Positions 7,820-61,587 are shown, counted from the stretch's first letter. The stretch is 64,000 nt of DNA from an uncultured Candidatus Saccharibacteria bacterium (GCA_964601615.1 CAZRNZ010000002.1:142826-206825), one strand, 5' to 3'. Numbers and translations are program-made. Notes: generated from the sequence alone by a model not told the origin.

Positions 7820-8647
7820 ATGGAAAGTTTTTCTAAAAATACATCAAATTCAGAAAAGGATAAAAATGGTTGGGGTAAGAATATTATAAAAGCCAGTGTT
7901 GTTGCAGGTATTTTAGCTGCCGCACCAACAATGAAGGCTGAGGCTCTGGAAATAGAACCAACCGCTTCTTGGAATCAAGGTATTGATGCTGCCAAAAACA
8001 GCGTACAAGAAGATATAAATGAGACACAGTTTACTTTCTTTAAGACAGGTGAAGGAGTTGGATATTGGTCTCCCATGACTGAAGGTGAAGTTGATACGGT
8101 TGCTCTTGAAGTGACAAAGATTACTCAAATAGCTAAAGAAAAGATATCTGGTGGAGAAATTGAGTCGATTTGTGTTGGACACACTCATCCAATTATTCCA
8201 GAATATGCTGAGTACTTTTCCGAGGGTGATGACAGGTGGAGAACCATATCTATTCCTCCTAGCGAGGGTGATATAAAAACAGTCTATTCGCTTGTTGGGG
8301 AGTTTATGAGATATGGCTTGGATCCTCAACATAATCTTGAATCATTTGCTGTGGATGCTAGAGGTGTTTGGTATTATGACTATGTCCACAAAGCAGATCT
8401 TGAGTCAGAAACTGAATTTGAGATGGTTAAGAATCATGGCTCAGAGGAAGCTAGAGGACAGTGGTTGCAAGATATGACTAGTTTCGTAAATGATACTATT
8501 GATCCCGATATTGATGTCAGAGAATTGGATTCATATAAGCAGTTGCAGCATTCTTATCGTGTGAATTTGGCAGCTAGTGTAAGGTTTGTGCCTTTTTCTG
8601 AAATTAATGAAGAGGCTCCTTGTGCTGGAGTTAGGCCTTCTGAGTAG
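7820..8647 (+). CDS. Hypothetical secreted protein inserted between rpsG and fusA.
   Basis: N-terminal signal peptide (IIKASVVAGILAAAPTMKAEA). Contains CVGHTHP...SEGDD and PPSEGD (a possible HxH...S..D metal-binding motif). Not recognisable as a known family. Confidence 0.5.
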   Translation: MESFSKNTSNSEKDKNGWGKNIIKASVVAGILAAAPTMKAEALEIEPTASWNQGIDAAKNSVQEDINETQFTFFKTGEGVGYWSPMTEGEVDTVALEVTKITQIAKEKISGGEIESICVGHTHPIIPEYAEYFSEGDDRWRTISIPPSEGDIKTVYSLVGEFMRYGLDPQHNLESFAVDARGVWYYDYVHKADLESETEFEMVKNHGSEEARGQWLQDMTSFVNDTIDPDIDVRELDSYKQLQHSYRVNLAASVRFVPFSEINEEAPCAGVRPSE

Positions 8648-8764
8648 TTTTTCAGGTTGCTCTAAGAGCAGAAATACCGTATAGTACCGGCACTTTCGTT
8701 AGCGCGGTCTGCGCTTTTGTTGATAAAGAAAGAATTACAAATAAAAAACAAGTTTATATAATTT

Positions 8765-10933
<2,169 letters not shown>

Positions 10934-44390: not shown

Positions 44391-44399
44391 ATCTAAATG

Positions 44400-44473
44400 T
44401 CCGCCCTCTTGGATTTGAACCAAGGACCCCAGAGGTATAAGCTCTGTGCTCTAACCAACTGAGCTAAGGGCGG
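44400..44473 (-). tRNA. tRNA-Ile with anticodon UAU, predicted to decode AUA.
   Basis: Hand-folded cloverleaf: acceptor CCGCCCT/AGGGCGG, D-arm GCTC...GAGC, anticodon stem CAGAG/CTCTG with loop CTTATAC, T-arm CTTGG-TTCAAAT-CCAAG, discriminator A. Confidence 0.75.
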
Positions 44474-47594: not shown

Positions 47595-48575
47595 ATGAGC
47601 AAGCATACTGACAAGTCTGTCCGTGTTTCCAATTTTCACTATTCTCCCTACGGCGGCATCAGGCAGGGTATTCCGCTTATTGACGACATGCCGAATCTTC
47701 GCAACAACGGTCGGAACTTTCCGTCGCACGTCAGGTGCGGTGAGAGGTTTCTTGCTTTGAATTACAAGGATCGTCCGGCGACACGCTTTATTGAAGATGC
47801 ATCTCGCGTCATGGACGCTGATGTTTTCAGTATCACACCAGCCGAAGGTTCGCCCTTCGATGTTTTGTCGAAAGGTACTGGTGATTCTGTCTTGATCTAT
47901 GTCGAGACCAAGCCAAACGATCGTCGCATCAAGGAAAAAAACCTCGGCGTCGACGTTCGTGAAGGTGTGATGGTGGACGACGGTGGCAAACTTGTCATGT
48001 ATTCTCGTGAAAATGGGCAGTTTCTGATCCAGCTTCGCAGTGGTCAGGGTGCTTACATTTTCATGAGGAACGGCTTAGTGACTCGAATTGATGTCCACGG
48101 CGGCAATGTGATTGAATCAAAACTCGATTTTATCACAATGGCCAGACTTCATGTGGAAAGGTTGGAGAGCGAAATCAATTTCCAAGAAAACCTTGAGGAC
48201 GAAAATGAACGTCGTCTTCATGGGATTCTCGGAAGTGCTGTCCGTTTGCTCAACAATTCACTACGTCGTCCAGAAGTGCGTCGGGTGTTCGTCGGTTTTC
48301 TTGTCGAACACGCTGATAGACTGCCGAAGTCTTTCCGAGAAACTGTAAGGACTTCGCTCTTGTCGGTCGGCGATATGTATGCCGGCAATTTCGTCGAAGG
48401 TTGGGATGGTAACGTCATTTCTCTTACTCAGGGCAAGACTGGCGTCATTTCAGACAAATTGAAAGAAGCGAATACTCGTCGTTCACTTCGTCGTGAAAAC
48501 GACCGTCAGATGCGCAGCCGCATGAAGGGCTCTTCCAACGGCGGCTCCAAGAAAAAAGTTGCCGAAAAAGCCTAA
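47595..48575 (+). CDS. Hypothetical protein, 326 aa. GC is markedly higher than the surroundings (about 55-57% versus about 40%), so it is probably horizontally acquired.
   Basis: RBS AGGAG 7 nt upstream. No family recognised. Composition shift seen directly. Confidence 0.5.
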   Translation: MSKHTDKSVRVSNFHYSPYGGIRQGIPLIDDMPNLRNNGRNFPSHVRCGERFLALNYKDRPATRFIEDASRVMDADVFSITPAEGSPFDVLSKGTGDSVLIYVETKPNDRRIKEKNLGVDVREGVMVDDGGKLVMYSRENGQFLIQLRSGQGAYIFMRNGLVTRIDVHGGNVIESKLDFITMARLHVERLESEINFQENLEDENERRLHGILGSAVRLLNNSLRRPEVRRVFVGFLVEHADRLPKSFRETVRTSLLSVGDMYAGNFVEGWDGNVISLTQGKTGVISDKLKEANTRRSLRRENDRQMRSRMKGSSNGGSKKKVAEKA

Positions 48576-50038: not shown

Positions 50039-50125
50039 GGAGCCGTGGCTGAGTGGTCGAAAGCACCTCACTGCTAACGAGGCAGGGTCTAAAAGCCCTC
50101 GAAGGTTCGAATCCTTTCGGCTCCG
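50039..50125 (+). tRNA. tRNA-Ser with anticodon GCU (long variable arm).
   Basis: Acceptor GGAGCCG/CGGCTCC, anticodon loop CTGCTAA, long variable arm CAGGGTCTAAAAGCCCTC, T-arm GAAGG-TTCGAAT-CCTTT. Followed by a terminator hairpin at 50140-50165. Confidence 0.8.
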
Positions 50126-50267
50126 CAAAACAATGAGCCCAACGCGTTAGCGTTGGGCGATTGTGTTTTTTCGAGAGACGAAAGAATTCGAAAAGGTTGC
50201 CTGATATTTTAAGGAGCGAAGCTGAATTAAAATATCGACAACCTGTACTGGTCATGTAATGACCGAA

Positions 50268-50284
50268 ACTCCTTTCGGCTCCGC
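50268..50284 (+). repeat. 17-nt near-exact direct repeat (16/17) of the tRNA-Ser 3' end (ACTCCTTTCGGCTCCGC), 142 nt downstream of the tRNA. It has an att-site-like signature.
   Basis: Compare tRNA 50110-50126 AATCCTTTCGGCTCCGC. Confidence 0.5.
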
Positions 50285-50379
50285 GATTACAAAATAGCGC
50301 CCATTAAGGGCGCTATTTTGTTAATGGTTGTTTTTATATTTAAAAATGGTCGCTGAAATATCAGCGACCATTGAAAGAT

Positions 50380-50868
50380 CTAGACTCGTCTCTTTTCTTT
50401 AGATGGCAAGGGTCGTTCTTTGTTGTGAACTGTTCTTGCTAAAAGGTTGTAACATTCCTTAAAACTATCGATAGTAAACAGATTACCAATTTTACTTTCA
50501 ATAAAATCTATTTGATCAGCAATTTCTATTCCTATTTGTTTTCCTTCTAGTGTAAGTTCAATGTAGCGTGTCCTGCGATCATTTCCAGTAGAATAAATAA
50601 TATAGCCAAGTCTGATTAAACCTTTGATGCTGTAACTTACATTTGAACCAAGATAGTATCCTTTTCTTGATAAGTCTCCTAATCGAATAGATGATGCTGG
50701 ATGTTTAGCCATTCGACTCAATATAAGAGCAGAGGGAAAGTTGAGCTGATCTGGTATATCTAAAGCTTCTCTGACAAAATACTCGATTAAATGTTGAAGG
50801 TTCTCCACTCGAGCATGAAAATCATGAATAGGTAAGTCAGCCCTAGTGAGTAACTTTACTGTAGTCAT
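50380..50868 (-). CDS. MarR-family transcriptional regulator.
   Basis: Winged-helix pattern (...LGDLSRKGYYLGSNVSYSIKGLIRLGYI...DRRTRYIELTLEGK). Start at the ATG at 50868. Confidence 0.65.
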   Translation of the reverse strand: MTTVKLLTRADLPIHDFHARVENLQHLIEYFVREALDIPDQLNFPSALILSRMAKHPASSIRLGDLSRKGYYLGSNVSYSIKGLIRLGYIIYSTGNDRRTRYIELTLEGKQIGIEIADQIDFIESKIGNLFTIDSFKECYNLLARTVHNKERPLPSKEKRRV

Positions 50869-50998
50869 TGATATGTTCCCCAAGAAGTTTCAACTGTTAG
50901 TCCAAACGATATTTAAGTATAAATATTTAACTAAGTCAATCAGAAAGGTCGTTAAAAAATCCCCAGCTTATAAAAGCTGGGGATTACTCGCGCAGGCA

Positions 50999-51556
50999 CT
51001 AACTGCAGGTCTGTATACGAATACCGTCTTGGAAACAACTCGAATCCTTTATAGTCTCATGCATGATATTGCTTCTTGTTAGATTATCAAGAAAAAGAAT
51101 GAGCCACCTAGACCAGTTTTTTCTTACAATGTCGCCAACTCCATTCCTTAGAGTTATAAATAGACACTTATTGCCAATTTCTATACAAGAGCCAGGCGGT
51201 AAATCTAGTGTTGTTCTATCTTCGATAAAATTTTGTTGGTCATTTATTGCACCAGATAATATCAATACATTATTAGTATTCTTGCGCGTATCAATGTAGA
51301 TACCTTCTTGGAATCCTTTTGAATCTTCAATGACTCTATGACTTGTATTATGAAGAACTAAAGCAGTAATTAAACGCTCAAACCATTCAGACCATATCTT
51401 CCGCATGGGAAAACCGGCAGAGGCTTTTAAGAAAATAATTAGGTATCCTTCACCATTTTTTATGCAAGAGCCATATGGTAGAACTAGGGTCGGATTATTA
51501 ATTTTACTGCTTTGTGTTGATTTGCTGGTACCAAAGAGCGACACCACGTTACTCAT
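50999..51556 (-). CDS. Hypothetical protein made of two tandem copies of a domain of about 85 aa.
   Basis: Internal repeat: LVLPYGSCIKNGEGYLIIFLKASAGFPMRKIWSEWF...HRVIEDSKGFQEGIYIDT versus LDLPPGSCIEIGNKCLFITLRNGVGDIVRKNWSRWL...HETIKDSSCFQDGIRIQT. Its start overlaps the upstream stop (ATGA). Confidence 0.5.
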   Translation of the reverse strand: MSNVVSLFGTSKSTQSSKINNPTLVLPYGSCIKNGEGYLIIFLKASAGFPMRKIWSEWFERLITALVLHNTSHRVIEDSKGFQEGIYIDTRKNTNNVLILSGAINDQQNFIEDRTTLDLPPGSCIEIGNKCLFITLRNGVGDIVRKNWSRWLILFLDNLTRSNIMHETIKDSSCFQDGIRIQTCS

Positions 51557-52278
51557 GTTTGTTCTTCCTTTCGAGGTTTAAGGAATATATACTCATCGTC
51601 CAGTCCAATAATGGTGCTAGAATCACTAGGGAATGGCAAAACCCACAAACATTCTTGACTTGTAATATTTGTGATGCCATTACCTACTTTTAAAAGTCGT
51701 TCGGGGTGATTTATGTTATCACTGTTAGTGGCAATTATTAGCCATTCGCCACAAGGTTGATCTAGATATGATAGTCGCAAAGCAAGGGCTGTCTCGTAGA
51801 AACATAAATCAAGGCCACTTGCAATCGCTTGTGCATAAAATAAATCGCGACGAAGTGATTTTGTACTTCGAAAGCCTAACCTCTTTGGTGTTACCCGCAC
51901 TAAGTCGACCTCATATGATTCGCTTTCAATATATTGTACCCAAGAGTTGCTAGTATCGTATCCTGTTGCAAGAATAGGGTGACCAATTTTGCAACCAAGT
52001 CTTTGAAACTCTTTTACATAATAATCATCCCTCTCTATCCAAAGATGTTCCATTTTGTTTAGAAAGAAATTTCTCATGGTGATAGTTTTCCAGATTGGAA
52101 TATCTTCTATGAGGAATTTACCTTTGAGGATATGACCCATAGCGTCTAATACAAAATCTGACGATAATTCACCATTAGCTATAGCTATGTCTATTTCCGA
52201 AAGTAGCGAAAGTAATCTTGTTTCGTATCCGGAATCATCAGTAACATCTGGCAGAGTAGACATTTTATTCATGTTCAC
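51553..52278 (-). CDS. Hypothetical protein, 241 aa, co-transcribed with the tandem-domain protein.
   Basis: ORF with a 4-nt overlap to the downstream gene. No family recognised. Confidence 0.45.
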   Translation of the reverse strand: MNMNKMSTLPDVTDDSGYETRLLSLLSEIDIAIANGELSSDFVLDAMGHILKGKFLIEDIPIWKTITMRNFFLNKMEHLWIERDDYYVKEFQRLGCKIGHPILATGYDTSNSWVQYIESESYEVDLVRVTPKRLGFRSTKSLRRDLFYAQAIASGLDLCFYETALALRLSYLDQPCGEWLIIATNSDNINHPERLLKVGNGITNITSQECLWVLPFPSDSSTIIGLDDEYIFLKPRKEEQT

Positions 52279-52339
52279 CTCCTAGATTTTCTATAAAAAG
52301 AACTTAATCTCGAAGCAATAAAACAGTATTTGTTTTTTA

Positions 52340-52378
52340 TTGTCAAATAAAAACCGCCGAGACACTTCTCGGCGGTCT
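52340..52378 (-). terminator. Terminator of the response-regulator gene on the minus strand (CCGCCGAGA-AGTGT-CTCGGCGG plus T-run).
   Basis: Hairpin at 52354-52375 followed on the minus strand by TTTTTATTT. Confidence 0.6.
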
Positions 52379-52389
52379 AATGTTTAATT

Positions 52390-53097
52390 TTATGCAGCAG
52401 CAACCTCGTGGGACTCATCGGGTTCCTTTAGAATATAACCTCGTCCCCACACTGTTTGAATATAGATATGGGCACTCTTGCCGGTAGCAAGCCTAATTTT
52501 CTTACGAAGCTTGCAGATAAATACATCGATGATCTTGAGTTCTGGCTCATCCATACCGCCGTAAAGGTAGTTGAGGAACATCTCTTTTGTAAGAGTGGTG
52601 CCAGAACGTAGAGCTAACAACTCCATCATCTTATATTCTTTTCCAGTTAGATGGATAGGATTATCAGATACAGCTACAGTTTTTGAGTCAAGGTTAATGG
52701 TGAGATCACCCATTTTAATAACGGATTCCGCATGACCTTTGCAGCGACGAACAATCGCAATTATCCTAGCAATCAGTTCATCTCGATGAAAAGGTTTTGT
52801 CAGATAATCATCAGCACCAAAACCAAGAGCTTTTACTTTATCTTCTACACCAGCAAGTCCAGAAATAACCATTATCGGTGTAGCAACTTTTGTACTCCTT
52901 AGAGTGCGTATCACTTCATATCCGGACATGTCGGGCAGGTTCAACTCTGTTAAAACAATATCGTAGTCATAGAGCTTGGCCAGATCAATTCCTTCTTCAC
53001 CGATGTCGGTAGTATAGATTGAAAAATTTTCAGCTTTCAGCATCAATTCTATTGATTGAGCTGTTGGTGGATGGTCCTCAATCAGTAGTACTCTCAT
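52390..53097 (-). CDS. ctrA: OmpR-family response regulator with very high similarity to alphaproteobacterial CtrA. The start is taken at MRVLLIEDH, preceded by a GAGGAG RBS.
   Basis: Receiver domain (MRVLLIEDH...[18 protein letters not shown]) and a winged-helix C-terminus [52 protein letters not shown]...TVWGRGY. From memory this is nearly identical to Caulobacter and Sinorhizobium CtrA. No adjacent histidine kinase. Confidence 0.7.
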
Positions 53098-53228
53098 CTT
53101 CTTTCTCCTCGCATGATGAGTTTTTTCTGAGGTACAAGGTACAAATCCACTTTTAAAGTTACTAGTACGGTGTTGGATTGTCAAATTACATAAAATAAAG
53201 AGCCGCCTCATAAAATGAGGCGGCTTTC

Positions 53229-53528
53229 TTAGTTGCGATAAAAATTAGTATACGTTGATCGAAGTCCGGCAAAACCTTTTTCTTTAAATAGTTTCTGCCA
53301 ACTAATGAATTCATCCAAGCTTATCGACCAGTTCTCTTTGACTTCAGTCAATGTGAAAAGGCCTTTTTGTACAGCTAGGACAATTGCGGCTTTACGAGAC
53401 GGTGTCCAGCGGGTGAATTCTTGTCTCAAAATATCTTCTCTTGTCATAACATTGCCGTCTGGCAATGTTATGGCGTTACTCCGTGCTCCACTTTTTCTTT
53501 TTTGAATACTTTTGACGGTAATAGGCAT
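53229..53528 (-). CDS. DUF1153 / SciP-like small HTH protein.
   Basis: ...[53 protein letters not shown] fits the DUF1153 pattern (RWT..RKA.VV.AV..G.I...EA...Y.LS.EEF..W......G..GLR.T). 99 aa, immediately upstream of the CtrA-like gene. Confidence 0.5.
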
Positions 53529-53618
53529 CGCCAGTTTCCTTAGAGAAAAACTTGTCTATAAATATAATACTACAAAAATCAGTTTTGTCTATGTAGTATT
53601 TATTGAGTTTATTTTGTG

Positions 53619-54293
53619 TTATTTAGCAGCATACCAACCAATAATCATAAGTGACTGGAAGAACCGAGTTGGACTTGAAAAGCCTTGTGAACGCATTAGT
53701 TCCTCAGTTTTTTCTGGTGGTAGTATTGTTAAATTACTTCTCATTAAGCTAGGTAGTTTTTCCAAAGATTCTGGTGTTGCGCCCATCAGGGTCTGAACTT
53801 TTTTCCAATTACCTAGCATGGTTGGAAAATTGTCTGAGTCTAAGTCAAAACTAATTTCTGTATTAATAAACTGACCTCCCAATTTCAATCTCTCAAAAAT
53901 ATTTTTGTAGTAGGGAAGACGATTTTCTTCTTTAATAAAATGTCCAACTAAGATACTCAAGACTGCATCAAATTCTTCTTTTGGTGCGTCTTCAATATAT
54001 CCGGTAATAAGTTCACATCTATTTAAAATTCCTGCTTCAGCCAGCTTTTGTTTGCAGACTTCTATCATTGATTCAGAAGGATCAACACCAACGAATTTCC
54101 AATCTGGATTTTCTTTAGCTAAAGAAATAATCTCGGTTCCAGTACCGACACCGACACAAAGTATGCGAGAATTTTCTGGTAAATCTTTCAATAACAATTT
54201 AATTAAAAAATGAACATTGTTGATTATTGGTTTAAGTCCGCTGTTCCTTTCGTCATAAGAATTTGATACTTGTTCGTTAAAAAAGTTTGTCAT
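53619..54293 (-). CDS. Class I SAM-dependent methyltransferase (CmoA/UbiE-like).
   Basis: ILCVGVGTGTEIISLA (motif I), DAVLSILVGHF, and LKLGGQFINTE. Confidence 0.65.
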   Translation of the reverse strand: MTNFFNEQVSNSYDERNSGLKPIINNVHFLIKLLLKDLPENSRILCVGVGTGTEIISLAKENPDWKFVGVDPSESMIEVCKQKLAEAGILNRCELITGYIEDAPKEEFDAVLSILVGHFIKEENRLPYYKNIFERLKLGGQFINTEISFDLDSDNFPTMLGNWKKVQTLMGATPESLEKLPSLMRSNLTILPPEKTEELMRSQGFSSPTRFFQSLMIIGWYAAK

Positions 54294-54432
54294 GTAGTTT
54301 TATTATATCAATATATTAATTTCATTTGACACTTCATATACTGAGGTCTATAGTCTCTAATAGATTGCTAATTTTCCACCAATTTCGGTTGGTGGTTTTA
54401 GTTCTTTCGACACAGTTCTATAGGAGGAAAAA

Positions 54433-54618
54433 ATGGATGTATGTGTGGCAACTTTCACTCTTGAAGAAATAAAAGAATTATTCAAGAGTGAAGATATTAT
54501 CCCTGGTACAGAAAAGTTTCATGAAGAATTTTCACGTCGGTTTCGACCGACGGAACTACCAGGTTATTATGTTGAGACTGATGACTGGACTCCAGAAAAT
54601 CGAGTTAATTCTCAGTAG
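54433..54618 (+). CDS. Hypothetical small protein, 61 aa.
   Basis: Strong RBS TAGGAGGAAAAA-ATG, with a terminator hairpin (AGCGGGCAA-TTTTT-TGCCCGCT) directly downstream. Confidence 0.5.
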   Translation: MDVCVATFTLEEIKELFKSEDIIPGTEKFHEEFSRRFRPTELPGYYVETDDWTPENRVNSQ

Positions 54619-54686
54619 GGTATTTAAGCGGGCAATTTTTTGCCCGCTTTTGTTATAATTACTTGTAAATTAAATTAATAATTTTT

Positions 54687-55319
54687 ATGAATATAAAGAT
54701 AGTAATTAGCGCCTTATTGATTATTGCGGCAGCTTCAGGAATTTATTTTTTTACAAAAGATAATAAAAGTGAGGTTGATGATGTAAAACAGTCAGCTGAA
54801 GTCTTTGAAAAAGGGAAGTTTACAGATCTGGTTAATTCTAATCAGGATTTAAAGTGTACTTTTAATCACGACGACGGAGAAAATATTTCTTCAGGAACAG
54901 TTTATTTTAAATCAGGTGGAGAGAAAATTAGTGCTGATATTGACATTGTTGAGAGTCGTGTCAATGAAATGAAGCTTGGATTGATTAGAAAAGATGGTTT
55001 TAATTATATTTGGAGTGATGTCTTTGGTGGGGTGAAGAATGTTGTTACAGATAATAATTCTTTCTTTGAATCCAGCGAAGATTCTCCTATTAATGAAGAG
55101 GATACTGAGTTTAATTGTGAGACTTGGCAGGTAGATGAGAGTGTTTTTGAGTTGCCAGAAGGTGTTTCTTTTCAAGAATTTTCAGCTTTAAATATTGATA
55201 TGAATAGCAATATTGAAAATCTATCTGAAATAGATATTTCGAATAAGCAGTGCGGTCTCTGCGATATGATTGAAGATTCTGGTTCTGCAAACGAATGTCG
55301 AAAAGCTTTCCAGTGTTAA
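54687..55319 (+). CDS. Hypothetical secreted or membrane-anchored Cys-containing protein, 210 aa.
   Basis: N-terminal signal or anchor (MNIKIVISALLIIAAASGIYFF). No family recognised. Confidence 0.45.
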   Translation: MNIKIVISALLIIAAASGIYFFTKDNKSEVDDVKQSAEVFEKGKFTDLVNSNQDLKCTFNHDDGENISSGTVYFKSGGEKISADIDIVESRVNEMKLGLIRKDGFNYIWSDVFGGVKNVVTDNNSFFESSEDSPINEEDTEFNCETWQVDESVFELPEGVSFQEFSALNIDMNSNIENLSEIDISNKQCGLCDMIEDSGSANECRKAFQC

Positions 55320-55325
55320 TGGTAT

Positions 55326-55360
55326 AAACAAAAAACGCCCTCAAGGGCGTTTTTTGTTTT
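55326..55360. terminator. Bidirectional terminator (AACGCCC-TCAA-GGGCGTT with an A-run and a T-run).
   Basis: Between convergent genes. Confidence 0.65.
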
Positions 55361-55366
55361 TGGAGA

Positions 55367-55627
55367 TTATGACAGGTGTTGAGAAACTAACTTTGTCATT
55401 TCAAACATAGAAACAACTTTCTTTCCACCGAATACCTTCAGTAGGTTTTCGTCAGCAACGATGTTTCTCTTATTCTTTGGGTCCTGAAGATCGTGCTTCT
55501 TGATATACACCCAAATTTGTTTAACAACTTCTGAACGAGGCATTGGCCCCTTACCAACTACTGGTGCTAATTCTGCACTGATAGTCATTGGTTTCATGAA
55601 AGCTGAATTTGCTTTTGCTTGTGCCAT
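55367..55627 (-). CDS. SWIB/MDM2 domain protein.
   Basis: ELAPVVGKGPMPRSEVVKQIWVYIKKHDLQDPKNKRNIVADENLLKVFGGKKVVSMFEMTKLVSQHL gives the full SWIB signature. 86 aa. Confidence 0.75.
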   Translation of the reverse strand: MAQAKANSAFMKPMTISAELAPVVGKGPMPRSEVVKQIWVYIKKHDLQDPKNKRNIVADENLLKVFGGKKVVSMFEMTKLVSQHLS

Positions 55628-56340: not shown

Positions 56341-56400
56341 ACATAAATTGATGTGTTAAAATTCTTTTAAAGATTTTAATGCATTTCGTTTTGTACTTTT

Positions 56401-61221: not shown

Positions 61222-61587
61222 ATGAAAGTATTGCTTGTAGACGACGACGCTTTTTTGAGAGATATGTATGCCACGAAGTTTATTGAGTGTGGACATACTG
61301 TAGAAGCAGTGAGTGAGGCTAAAGAGGCTGTTAGTAAAATGAAAGAAGATAATTACGATGTGGTTATCTTAGATATGATTATGCCTGGAATGTCCGGAGT
61401 TGATTTACTCAAAGAAGTTTCTGGTCTTGGTATAAAAGGAGAGACCAAGATAATCATGCTTTCTAATCAAAGCGATGTATCTGATATGTCTTCAGCTAAA
61501 GAAGCTGGTGCAGATGGTTACATAGTTAAGGCTGAATCAATACCTAGTGAAGTAGTTAAGCGGGTTGAGGAATTGGCGGGAGTATAA
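61222..61587 (+). CDS. Single-domain response regulator (CheY-like receiver) embedded in the pilus cluster.
   Basis: MKVLLVDDDAFLRD...DVVILDMIMPGMSG...K has the receiver Asp and Lys pattern. 121 aa. Confidence 0.75.
   Translation: MKVLLVDDDAFLRDMYATKFIECGHTVEAVSEAKEAVSKMKEDNYDVVILDMIMPGMSGVDLLKEVSGLGIKGETKIIMLSNQSDVSDMSSAKEAGADGYIVKAESIPSEVVKRVEELAGV

Follow-up and report, generated by a model that had tools for sequence, protein, structure and literature searches.

How can CtrA, a response regulator regarded as an alphaproteobacterial hallmark and commonly understood to depend on Asp51 phosphorylation for its activity, serve a bacterium of another phylum? This question is raised by a block of six genes within a stretch of 64,000 nucleotides from an uncultured Candidatus Saccharibacteria bacterium (GCA_964601615.1, CAZRNZ010000002.1:142826-206825; the whole stretch is called the window below), where an open reading frame (ORF) on the minus strand at 52390-53097 encodes CtrA and the gene directly upstream encodes a small, SciP-like protein of the DUF1153 family. 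As a whole, the locus is best explained, and in our view probably so, by the transfer of a sciP-ctrA pair from an alphaproteobacterium into a genome of the Paceibacteria, where CtrA would now act independently of any kinase and with a bias to its active state. The window gene would then be nature's version of the D51E change that geneticists use to obtain kinase-independent CtrA, as well as a concrete case of a master regulator transferred between phyla into a minimal genome. While all parts of this system are known (CtrA, DUF1153/SciP and pseudo-receivers), their combination and their host are new, and no paper that brings CtrA together with Patescibacteria or the Candidate Phyla Radiation (CPR) was found in the literature searched.

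CtrA and its altered receiver domain

By its sequence, the product of the ORF at 52390-53097 is CtrA, as the earlier note had recognised when it set this protein apart from generic regulators of the OmpR/PhoB type. It scores 371.5 bits against the NCBIfam model NF045991 "response regulator transcription factor CtrA" (equivalog cut-off 350), with PmrA following as the next-best NCBIfam family at 151 bits, and its best match in the PDB is the receiver domain of Brucella CtrA (4QPJ). In a search of 5.8 billion proteins, all genuine matches among the best 120 are CtrA proteins of 71-76% identity (n = 116), and the closest named ones, from Hyphomicrobiales and Microvirga, are 72-76% identical. The mean identity among alphaproteobacterial CtrA proteins is 74.4% +/- 11.1 (PMC9437464); the window protein is 73% identical to CtrA of S. 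meliloti and 62% identical to that of Paracoccus, which share 76% with each other. Three entries that score above genuine CtrA (P0002-P0004) are not sisters of the window protein and were set aside as mis-assembled sequences on short contigs, their scores being inflated because of internally duplicated segments (e.g., two copies of a segment ending in ...TVWGRGY).

The window protein shares its two-domain architecture, length and level of identity with CtrA of Caulobacter, Brucella and Sinorhizobium, and its C-terminus (...HEVAAA) has the AA ending of the alphaproteobacterial proteins. Both domains are equally conserved (77% for the receiver and 75% for the DNA-binding domain), and a 15-residue stretch that we take to be the recognition helix is unchanged compared to alphaproteobacterial CtrA; in a sequence alignment, this segment as well as T168 and T170 are identical to S. 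meliloti CtrA. What sets the window copy apart from its alphaproteobacterial counterparts is its patescibacterial host, a two-residue insertion at positions 201-202, and two substitutions in the phosphorylation site, which are its most informative feature and had been missed by the earlier note. Residue 51, the phospho-acceptor Asp in 116 of the 116 best homologues, is Glu (codon GAG), and residue 9, the second Asp of the acidic pocket in 114 of these 116, is His (codon CAT); both changes are also seen in the alignment to the Brucella CtrA structure. The switch residues Ser79 and Lys101 are retained, and most of the other 18 among a total of 20 deviations from the CtrA consensus are conservative. 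Pfam PF00072 still recognises the receiver fold at 92.9 bits despite the absent phospho-acceptor, which fits the definition of a pseudo-receiver as a receiver fold without phospho-acceptor Asp that often has Glu instead and often an altered acidic pocket (PMC12632262).

In such aspartate-less receivers, the residue at the D position is most often replaced by Glu (PMC12632262, PMC4395418), and Glu causes partial activation without phosphorylation in many regulators (PMC12632262). For CtrA itself, D51E is the standard phosphomimetic allele, and laboratory work on Caulobacter and Rhodobacter uses ctrA(D51E) as a phosphorylation-independent, active-like variant (PMC6363796). The window protein has the same substitution at the same residue, yet here it is natural, comes with D9H and further deviations, and is found in a host without a CtrA regulon. 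Another parallel is offered by ChxR of Chlamydia trachomatis and other atypical OmpR/PhoB regulators; ChxR is likewise an OmpR/PhoB-type protein in a reduced, host-dependent bacterium and dimerises, binds DNA and activates without phosphorylation (PMC3960148). Unlike ChxR, which is an old, lineage-wide chlamydial gene with a DNA motif of its own, the window protein is an orthologue-grade copy from another phylum.

Judged from its residues, the window CtrA lacks what control by the CckA-ChpT phosphorelay requires, i.e., Asp51 and an intact Asp8/Asp9 pocket, and Glu51 and His9 therefore explain its orphan status. The earlier note had called the regulator an orphan for want of a histidine kinase or ChpT nearby, and indeed a Pfam scan of 39 window ORFs yields no domain of the types HisKA, HATPase_c, Hpt or HPTransfase, nor does it turn up CckA, ChpT, DivK or DivL. 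The chpT gene of S. meliloti is ca. 1 kb away from ctrA, whereas no chpT, cckA or divK is found near ctrA of the window. The two substitutions, the retained switch residues in otherwise conserved domains and the missing kinase together suggest that this CtrA is an orphan by design and not merely by gene neighbourhood. The natural D51E change fits an orphan regulator that is independent of phosphorylation, and the window CtrA probably works without any kinase.

The protein might instead still be under signal control by a kinase, phosphotransferase or other modifier that is encoded outside the window and acts, for example, on another residue. Our data cover 64 kb of a 278-kb contig, and a gene for a single-domain receiver in the pil operon (61222-61587) implies that this lineage has some two-component parts. 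Nevertheless, we consider such unseen control improbable, since Glu51 is unable to take a phosphoryl group from a histidine kinase or ChpT and a metal-binding carboxylate is lost through His9, in addition to the negative result for kinase and Hpt domains.

Host genome, variable slot and origin of the block

The window belongs to a CPR genome and not to an alphaproteobacterial contig, in agreement with the earlier note, and its relatives place it with the Paceibacteria (Patescibacteria/CPR). SecY is 88-90% identical to proteins of Ca. Paceibacterota, Ca. Nomurabacteria and Ca. Kaiserbacteria, and the relatives of PilM bear the same names. The transfer-messenger RNA is of the one-piece type (ARAGORN, Rfam), while Alphaproteobacteria have a two-piece form. 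The block comprises six ORFs on the minus strand, from a MarR regulator to a methyltransferase (ca. 50.3-54.3 kb), in the following setting:

50039-50126, plus strand: tRNA-Ser(GCU) (ARAGORN, Rfam), left landmark of the variable slot
50175-50284, plus strand: conserved element of ca. 110 nucleotides, ending in a 15-nucleotide exact copy of the tRNA 3' end
50380-50883, minus strand: MarR-family winged-helix regulator (Pfam MarR_2, HTH_27), first gene of the block
50999-51556, minus strand: tandem-repeat protein of 185 amino acids with two repeats of ca. 85 amino acids
51553-52278, minus strand: protein of 241 amino acids, translationally coupled to the 185-amino-acid gene by an ATGA overlap
52351-52378, minus strand: terminator-like hairpin directly after the ctrA stop codon (12-pair stem, 7 GC pairs, T-run)
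52390-53097, minus strand: ctrA, 235 amino acids, OmpR-type receiver and winged helix (Pfam Response_reg, Trans_reg_C)
53098-53200, minus strand: upstream region of ctrA with a TTGACA -35-like hexamer and a GAGGAG ribosome-binding site
53201-53225, minus strand: terminator-like hairpin after sciP (11-pair stem, 7 GC pairs, T-run)
53229-53528, minus strand: SciP-like DUF1153 protein of 99 amino acids (Pfam DUF1153), directly upstream of ctrA
53619-54293, minus strand: class I S-adenosylmethionine-dependent methyltransferase (Pfam Methyltransf_25/12/31/11), last gene of the block
54433-55627: native right flank with ORFs of 61 and 210 amino acids (both plus strand) and a SWIB-domain gene (minus strand)

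All feature coordinates of the earlier note agree with this inventory. The start of ctrA is the methionine of MRVLL at 53097, with the GAGGAG site 8 nucleotides before the ATG and the TTGACA hexamer further upstream; an annotated form of 273 amino acids is over-extended, given that ribosome-binding site and hexamer precede the MRVLL start. A scan for consensus promoters does not list a full promoter upstream of ctrA because the -10 element is weak. With terminator-like hairpins after sciP and after ctrA, the two genes would form separate transcription units.

Sister loci from five lineages were obtained via homologues of PilM (L081, L082/L083, L084, L085 and L086), while a search of genome contigs with the malic enzyme gave distant relatives only (<=63% identity) and no sister genome. 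In the sister loci, FtsH is followed by tRNA-Ile(UAU), an NAD-binding protein, RecG, a 320-amino-acid protein, the malic enzyme, tRNA-Ser(GCU) and then a slot to the right of which SWIB, ComF, PilM and the pilus operon are encoded. The tRNA-Ser(GCU) gene follows the malic enzyme gene in L081, L082, L084, L085 and L086, the SWIB, comF and pilM genes are syntenic in all sister loci, and homologues of the right-flank ORFs of 61 and 210 amino acids are present in L082/L083. The content of the slot varies by lineage (RibD_C with glutamate dehydrogenase, small hypothetical proteins, or a flavodoxin-like protein with a helix-turn-helix protein), and the six-gene block is absent from all five lineages, which answers in the negative the question of the earlier note whether sister genomes carry it at tRNA-Ser. 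No homologues of the six block genes were found within 10 kb in the sisters, apart from a separate and divergent CtrA-like gene in the slot of L082 that is described below.

These comparisons also bear on the concern that the block might be an artefact of assembly or binning, i.e., an alphaproteobacterial fragment fused to a Paceibacteria contig. The source is indeed a metagenome-assembled genome, and P0002-P0004 illustrate that CtrA genes can be mis-assembled. Yet both flanks of the block are syntenic with sister Paceibacteria, and its GC content (0.34-0.41) and GC content at third codon positions (GC3) are those of the host and not the 0.55-0.70 of typical CtrA-bearing contigs. Furthermore, NCBI and an independent Logan assembly both contain this protein, and a CtrA-like gene occupies the same slot in a second Paceibacteria genome, of which there are three independent assemblies (ENA, Logan and JGI). 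Syntenic flanks, host-like composition, two assemblies and a related gene in a second genome thus make a chimera extremely unlikely.

The block begins 250 nucleotides downstream of tRNA-Ser(GCU) and adjoins this tRNA as genomic islands do, though no integrase, transposase or phage family was matched by any of its ORFs (Pfam, NCBIfam, PHROG). The direct repeat of the tRNA 3' end that the earlier note had reported is real: the last 15 nucleotides of tRNA-Ser recur exactly at 50270-50284, and 16 of 17 positions match over 50268-50284. Its role as an island boundary did not hold up. The copy is single and lies 143 nucleotides past the tRNA, to the left of the block, with no further repeat of the tRNA 3' end at the right end of the block even when three mismatches are allowed. 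Moreover, the element of ca. 110 nucleotides that contains it is also present in the island-free L084 (ca. 7895-8000), with three compensatory base pairs. Being shared with a block-free genome and having no partner on the right, the repeat is not the attachment (att) site of the block, and the element, which matches no Rfam family, probably represents a small structured RNA or the scar of an old att site.

GC content and GC3 of the block (0.34-0.41 and 0.26-0.35, respectively) are within the range of the host, and ctrA was measured at 0.411, in line with the ca. 41% given in the earlier note. The codon fit of ctrA, sciP and the genes of the 185- and 241-amino-acid proteins is ca. 0, compared to 0.07-0.27 for host genes. 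Searched against 72,556 plasmids and chromids, the MarR protein matches only Alphaproteobacteria (30-36% identity), the 241-amino-acid protein only hypothetical proteins of Bradyrhizobium plasmids (29-31% identity, E 2e-7) and the SciP-like protein only Alphaproteobacteria, while the 185-amino-acid repeat protein has no match there. Alphaproteobacterial matches and low codon fit in combination with a host-like GC content support a multi-gene transfer from Alphaproteobacteria that has since been ameliorated. We thus propose that the sciP-ctrA pair entered a Paceibacteria genome horizontally from an alphaproteobacterium, probably together with the genes of the MarR regulator and the 241-amino-acid protein, and that it would have landed between tRNA-Ser(GCU) and the SWIB gene, in a slot prone to recombination. 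An ancient date for this acquisition is plausible, considering the host-like GC and GC3 and a 56%-identical homologue with Glu51 in a sister genome. An alphaproteobacterial donor would also offer a handle on regulation and possible host association in this uncultured Paceibacteria lineage.

Glutamate at position 51 in other CtrA copies

The sister genome in question (L082) carries a CtrA-like gene for a protein of 235 amino acids at 8105-8812 (minus strand), between the gene of a 207-amino-acid protein and the SWIB gene, i.e., in the same slot as the window block though at a different point. This genome has been assembled three times (ENA, ERZ27245345 k141_56787; Logan, L083; JGI, L093, Ga0206107_1000058). 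The encoded protein shares 56% identity with the window CtrA and 52-55% with true CtrA proteins, has Glu51 and Asn8, and ends in ...MQAA; a SciP-like gene is not found within 10 kb of it, and a metagenome search with this protein returned only itself. It shares seven of the 20 deviant residues of the window protein, the third-highest number among 119 sequences, which is suggestive and not decisive. The two genes possibly go back to a single old acquisition with fast divergence thereafter, or to two separate acquisitions.

Beyond these two genomes, position 51 is Asp in 105 and Glu in 13 of the 150 best cluster representatives (from 1.84 billion proteins), with Asn, Ala, Ser or other residues in the remaining representatives that cover this position. 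The Glu51 representatives P0368 and P0477 come from proteobacterial contexts and not from CPR; one is found beside genes for beta-oxidation and GlmS/GlmU and the other in a cluster of flagellar genes that includes three OmpR-type regulators in tandem, while P0508 and P0433 are on contigs too short for placement. We note that these three tandem genes (L173:8001-10376, TARA_SAMEA6035044_METAG-scaffold_253) are located beside FlhA, FlhF, FliI and FliJ and that the first of them, the CtrA-like P0477 with Glu51, has an N-terminal "EPHP" that resembles "EDHP" of the window protein.

CtrA-like genes are also found on IMG/VR contigs, and three copies with Glu51 are in clear phage context:

L183:5001-5762 (UViG_3300023211_000126): with RusA, helicase and DnaB; adjoins a DNA methyltransferase
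L180:5001-5771 (UViG_3300047994_000350): with integrase and head protein; adjoins a DNA methyltransferase
L190:5001-5687 (UViG_3300044698_000275): with replication initiator, HNH and large terminase; adjoins a DNA methyltransferase

Like the window CtrA, these copies sit on mobile DNA off the phosphorelay and combine Glu51 with a damaged acidic pocket, one Asp of which is lost (to Pro, Asn or His), while Ser/Thr79 and Lys101 are retained. Unlike the window gene, they are on contigs with a GC content of 0.57-0.70, presumably of phages infecting Alphaproteobacteria, and they sit beside DNA methyltransferases without a sciP gene. Since their sequences resemble cellular CtrA more than the window protein, we regard them as parallels and not as sources. 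No credible carrier of CtrA or SciP was found among the cultured-phage genomes of INPHARED, and no paper on phage-encoded CtrA was found in the literature searched; phrog_731 had been considered as a CtrA-specific family and was rejected because it is a generic OmpR-type family.

The recurrence of Glu51 in phages, paralogues and a sister CPR genome argues that it represents a functional state in CtrA copies no longer tied to the relay, and the copies on phage contigs suggest that portable CtrA of constitutive activity may be more widespread. Only tentatively would we go further and propose that this Paceibacteria lineage has domesticated CtrA as a kinase-free factor with a SciP-like antagonist and targets in its own cell (e.g., type IV pilus/competence or division genes). 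By the same tentative proposal, ctrA genes that escape the relay into phages, paralogues or other phyla would generally change Asp51 to Glu and lose one Asp of the acidic pocket, turning into a portable and constitutively active module.

The association with phages invites yet another thought, i.e., that a CPR epibiont could use active CtrA and/or the SciP-like protein against the CtrA regulon of an alphaproteobacterial host. Glu51 CtrA-like genes in phage replication and packaging modules suggest a use in manipulating alphaproteobacterial cells, and several products of the block (MarR, the 241-amino-acid protein and the SciP-like protein) have alphaproteobacterial affinity. Conversely, the block has no link to a secretion or injection apparatus, its proteins show no match to families related to secretion (Pfam, NCBIfam), and codon usage and GC content are adapted to expression in the CPR cell, so that we consider a host-directed tool very improbable.

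SciP-like partner, candidate targets and neighbouring genes

The protein encoded upstream of ctrA had been proposed to be a DUF1153 protein of the SciP kind, of which the family assignment stands and the finer one does not. It matches Pfam PF06627 (DUF1153) at 85.9 bits (cut-off 23.5) over profile positions 4-87 of 87 and thus shares size and a full-length domain match with SciP, and it also matches the DUF1153 structures 2OA4 and 2JRT in the PDB. Against the NCBIfam model NF051866 "CtrA inhibitor SciP", in contrast, it reaches 80.6 bits and thereby misses the equivalog cut-off of 100, so that it can be called SciP at the level of the DUF1153 family only. Its adjacency to ctrA is another trait in common with SciP, which is linked to ctrA in Rhodobacterales and Rhizobiaceae: in the window, sciP and ctrA are direct neighbours in the same orientation, with sciP upstream and a gap of 131 nucleotides between them, and Paracoccus ferrooxidans has a DUF1153 gene in the same order and orientation with a gap of 92 nucleotides. 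In S. meliloti, a stretch of 4 kb contains sciP and ctrA, which lie within 1.5 kb, together with chpT and a receiver gene.

SciP of Caulobacter binds CtrA and blocks the recruitment of RNA polymerase (PMC4083442). Cut off from the CckA-ChpT phosphorelay, the window CtrA would survive as a pseudo-receiver with Glu51 and His9 that has kept its receiver fold, its DNA-recognition helix and the switch residues Thr/Ser and Lys. It most likely acts as a DNA-binding transcription factor that is independent of phosphorylation and locked in, or biased to, the active state, and it would be expected to keep the TTAA-N7-TTAA specificity of CtrA. Its output would then be set by its own transcription and damped by the SciP-like protein as in Caulobacter, with possible turnover by proteolysis via the ...AA C-terminus (ClpXP tag). 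Such a protein would be a natural experiment in how a response regulator is rewired once its phosphorelay has been left behind.

The sole TTAA-N7-TTAA near the block (56356-56370, plus strand) is located in the divergent promoter of comF and pilM, 31 nucleotides ahead of pilM. The first of its two TTAA halves falls within an extended -10 element (TGTTAAAAT or TGTTAGAAT) that all sisters have conserved in front of pilM, and only the window genome, which is the one with ctrA and sciP, has the full box. Boxes with one mismatch are not convincingly placed in any intergenic region of the block. The pilM box is a candidate CtrA site without statistical support and hence a lead at best.

Several observations weigh against an active CtrA of alphaproteobacterial origin. 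The search for CtrA boxes upstream of genes that the earlier note had suggested ended at chance frequency: TTAA-N7-TTAA is found 5 times in the window against 4.8 expected, and the SciP-associated TTAACCAT is found 2 times against 3.0 expected, though 64 kb give little statistical power for such counts. The pilM box overlaps the conserved -10 element, and the sister genome with a CtrA-like gene lacks this box. Glu at the D position fails to activate some response regulators (PMC12632262), and the scan for kinases covers 39 window ORFs out of a 278-kb contig. The SciP-like protein is divergent, being 38-40% identical to the SciP proteins of Sinorhizobium and Paracoccus, which are 54% identical to each other. 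Among the 5.8 billion proteins no relative of the window CtrA above 76% identity was found, and the window and L082 proteins are sisters in only 11 of 100 neighbour-joining bootstraps.

Some of these points would be expected if ctrA were a neutral passenger in decay, i.e., recent junk in a hypervariable slot with D51E and D9H as the first steps of pseudogenisation: the content of the tRNA-Ser/SWIB slot differs in every sister lineage, a relative of more than 76% identity is not known, CtrA boxes are not enriched, and the SciP-like protein has strongly diverged. A gene in decay would hardly be expected to present as this one does, with an intact ORF of 235 codons that has a ribosome-binding site and a terminator, two domains that are ca. 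75% identical to functional CtrA with an unchanged putative recognition helix, and two radical changes that fall exactly on the phosphorylation site. Its fully host-like GC and GC3 imply that ctrA has long been resident without gaining stop codons, and the same state is seen independently in phage, paralogue and sister-CPR copies that retain Ser/Thr79 and Lys101. We therefore consider decay unlikely; an intact ORF with signals of its own, evenly conserved domains and the recurrence of Glu51 elsewhere suggest that the window CtrA is functional.

For the remaining genes of the block, the earlier description as a MarR regulator, a two-repeat protein with ATGA coupling to a 241-amino-acid protein, and a class I methyltransferase was borne out throughout (Pfam, NCBIfam and internal alignment). 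The MarR ORF has only a weak NCBIfam match to LdtR (48.7 bits, cut-off 250). The two halves of the 185-amino-acid protein align with 32 of 82 identities and a score of 131, compared to a mean of 24 and a maximum of 40 in 500 shuffles, and neither this protein nor the 241-amino-acid protein matches any family in Pfam, NCBIfam, PHROG or PADLOC. The AlphaFold model of the latter is unusable (mean pLDDT, i.e., predicted local distance difference test, of 33), and its candidacy as a ChpT-like phosphotransferase was rejected, there being neither a Pfam or NCBIfam match nor a usable model. The methyltransferase also matches phrog_4752 "tRNA methyltransferase" and the methyltransferase domain of mad2 in PADLOC; a role as CcrM-type DNA methyltransferase was rejected based on the Pfam families that it matches.

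Outside the block, an ORF for 326 amino acids (47595-48575, plus strand) without match in Pfam or PHROG has a GC content of 0.487 and a GC3 of 0.51, compared to ca. 0.39 and ca. 0.25 for its neighbours. A gene of similar size is found in the same place between RecG and the malic enzyme in L081, L082/L083 and L084, whereas the gene is missing from L085, and L086 has two small ORFs in its place. The tRNA-Ile(UAU) at 44399-44473 (minus strand), which has an unusual AUA reading, is found at the corresponding place in L082, L083 and L084. The SWIB gene of the right flank (55367-55627, minus strand) encodes a stand-alone SWIB/MDM2-domain protein of 86 amino acids and adjoins comF in all sister loci, and the single-domain receiver gene at 61222-61587 (plus strand) is conserved in the type IV pilus operon between the genes of PilB-like and PilT-like ATPases.

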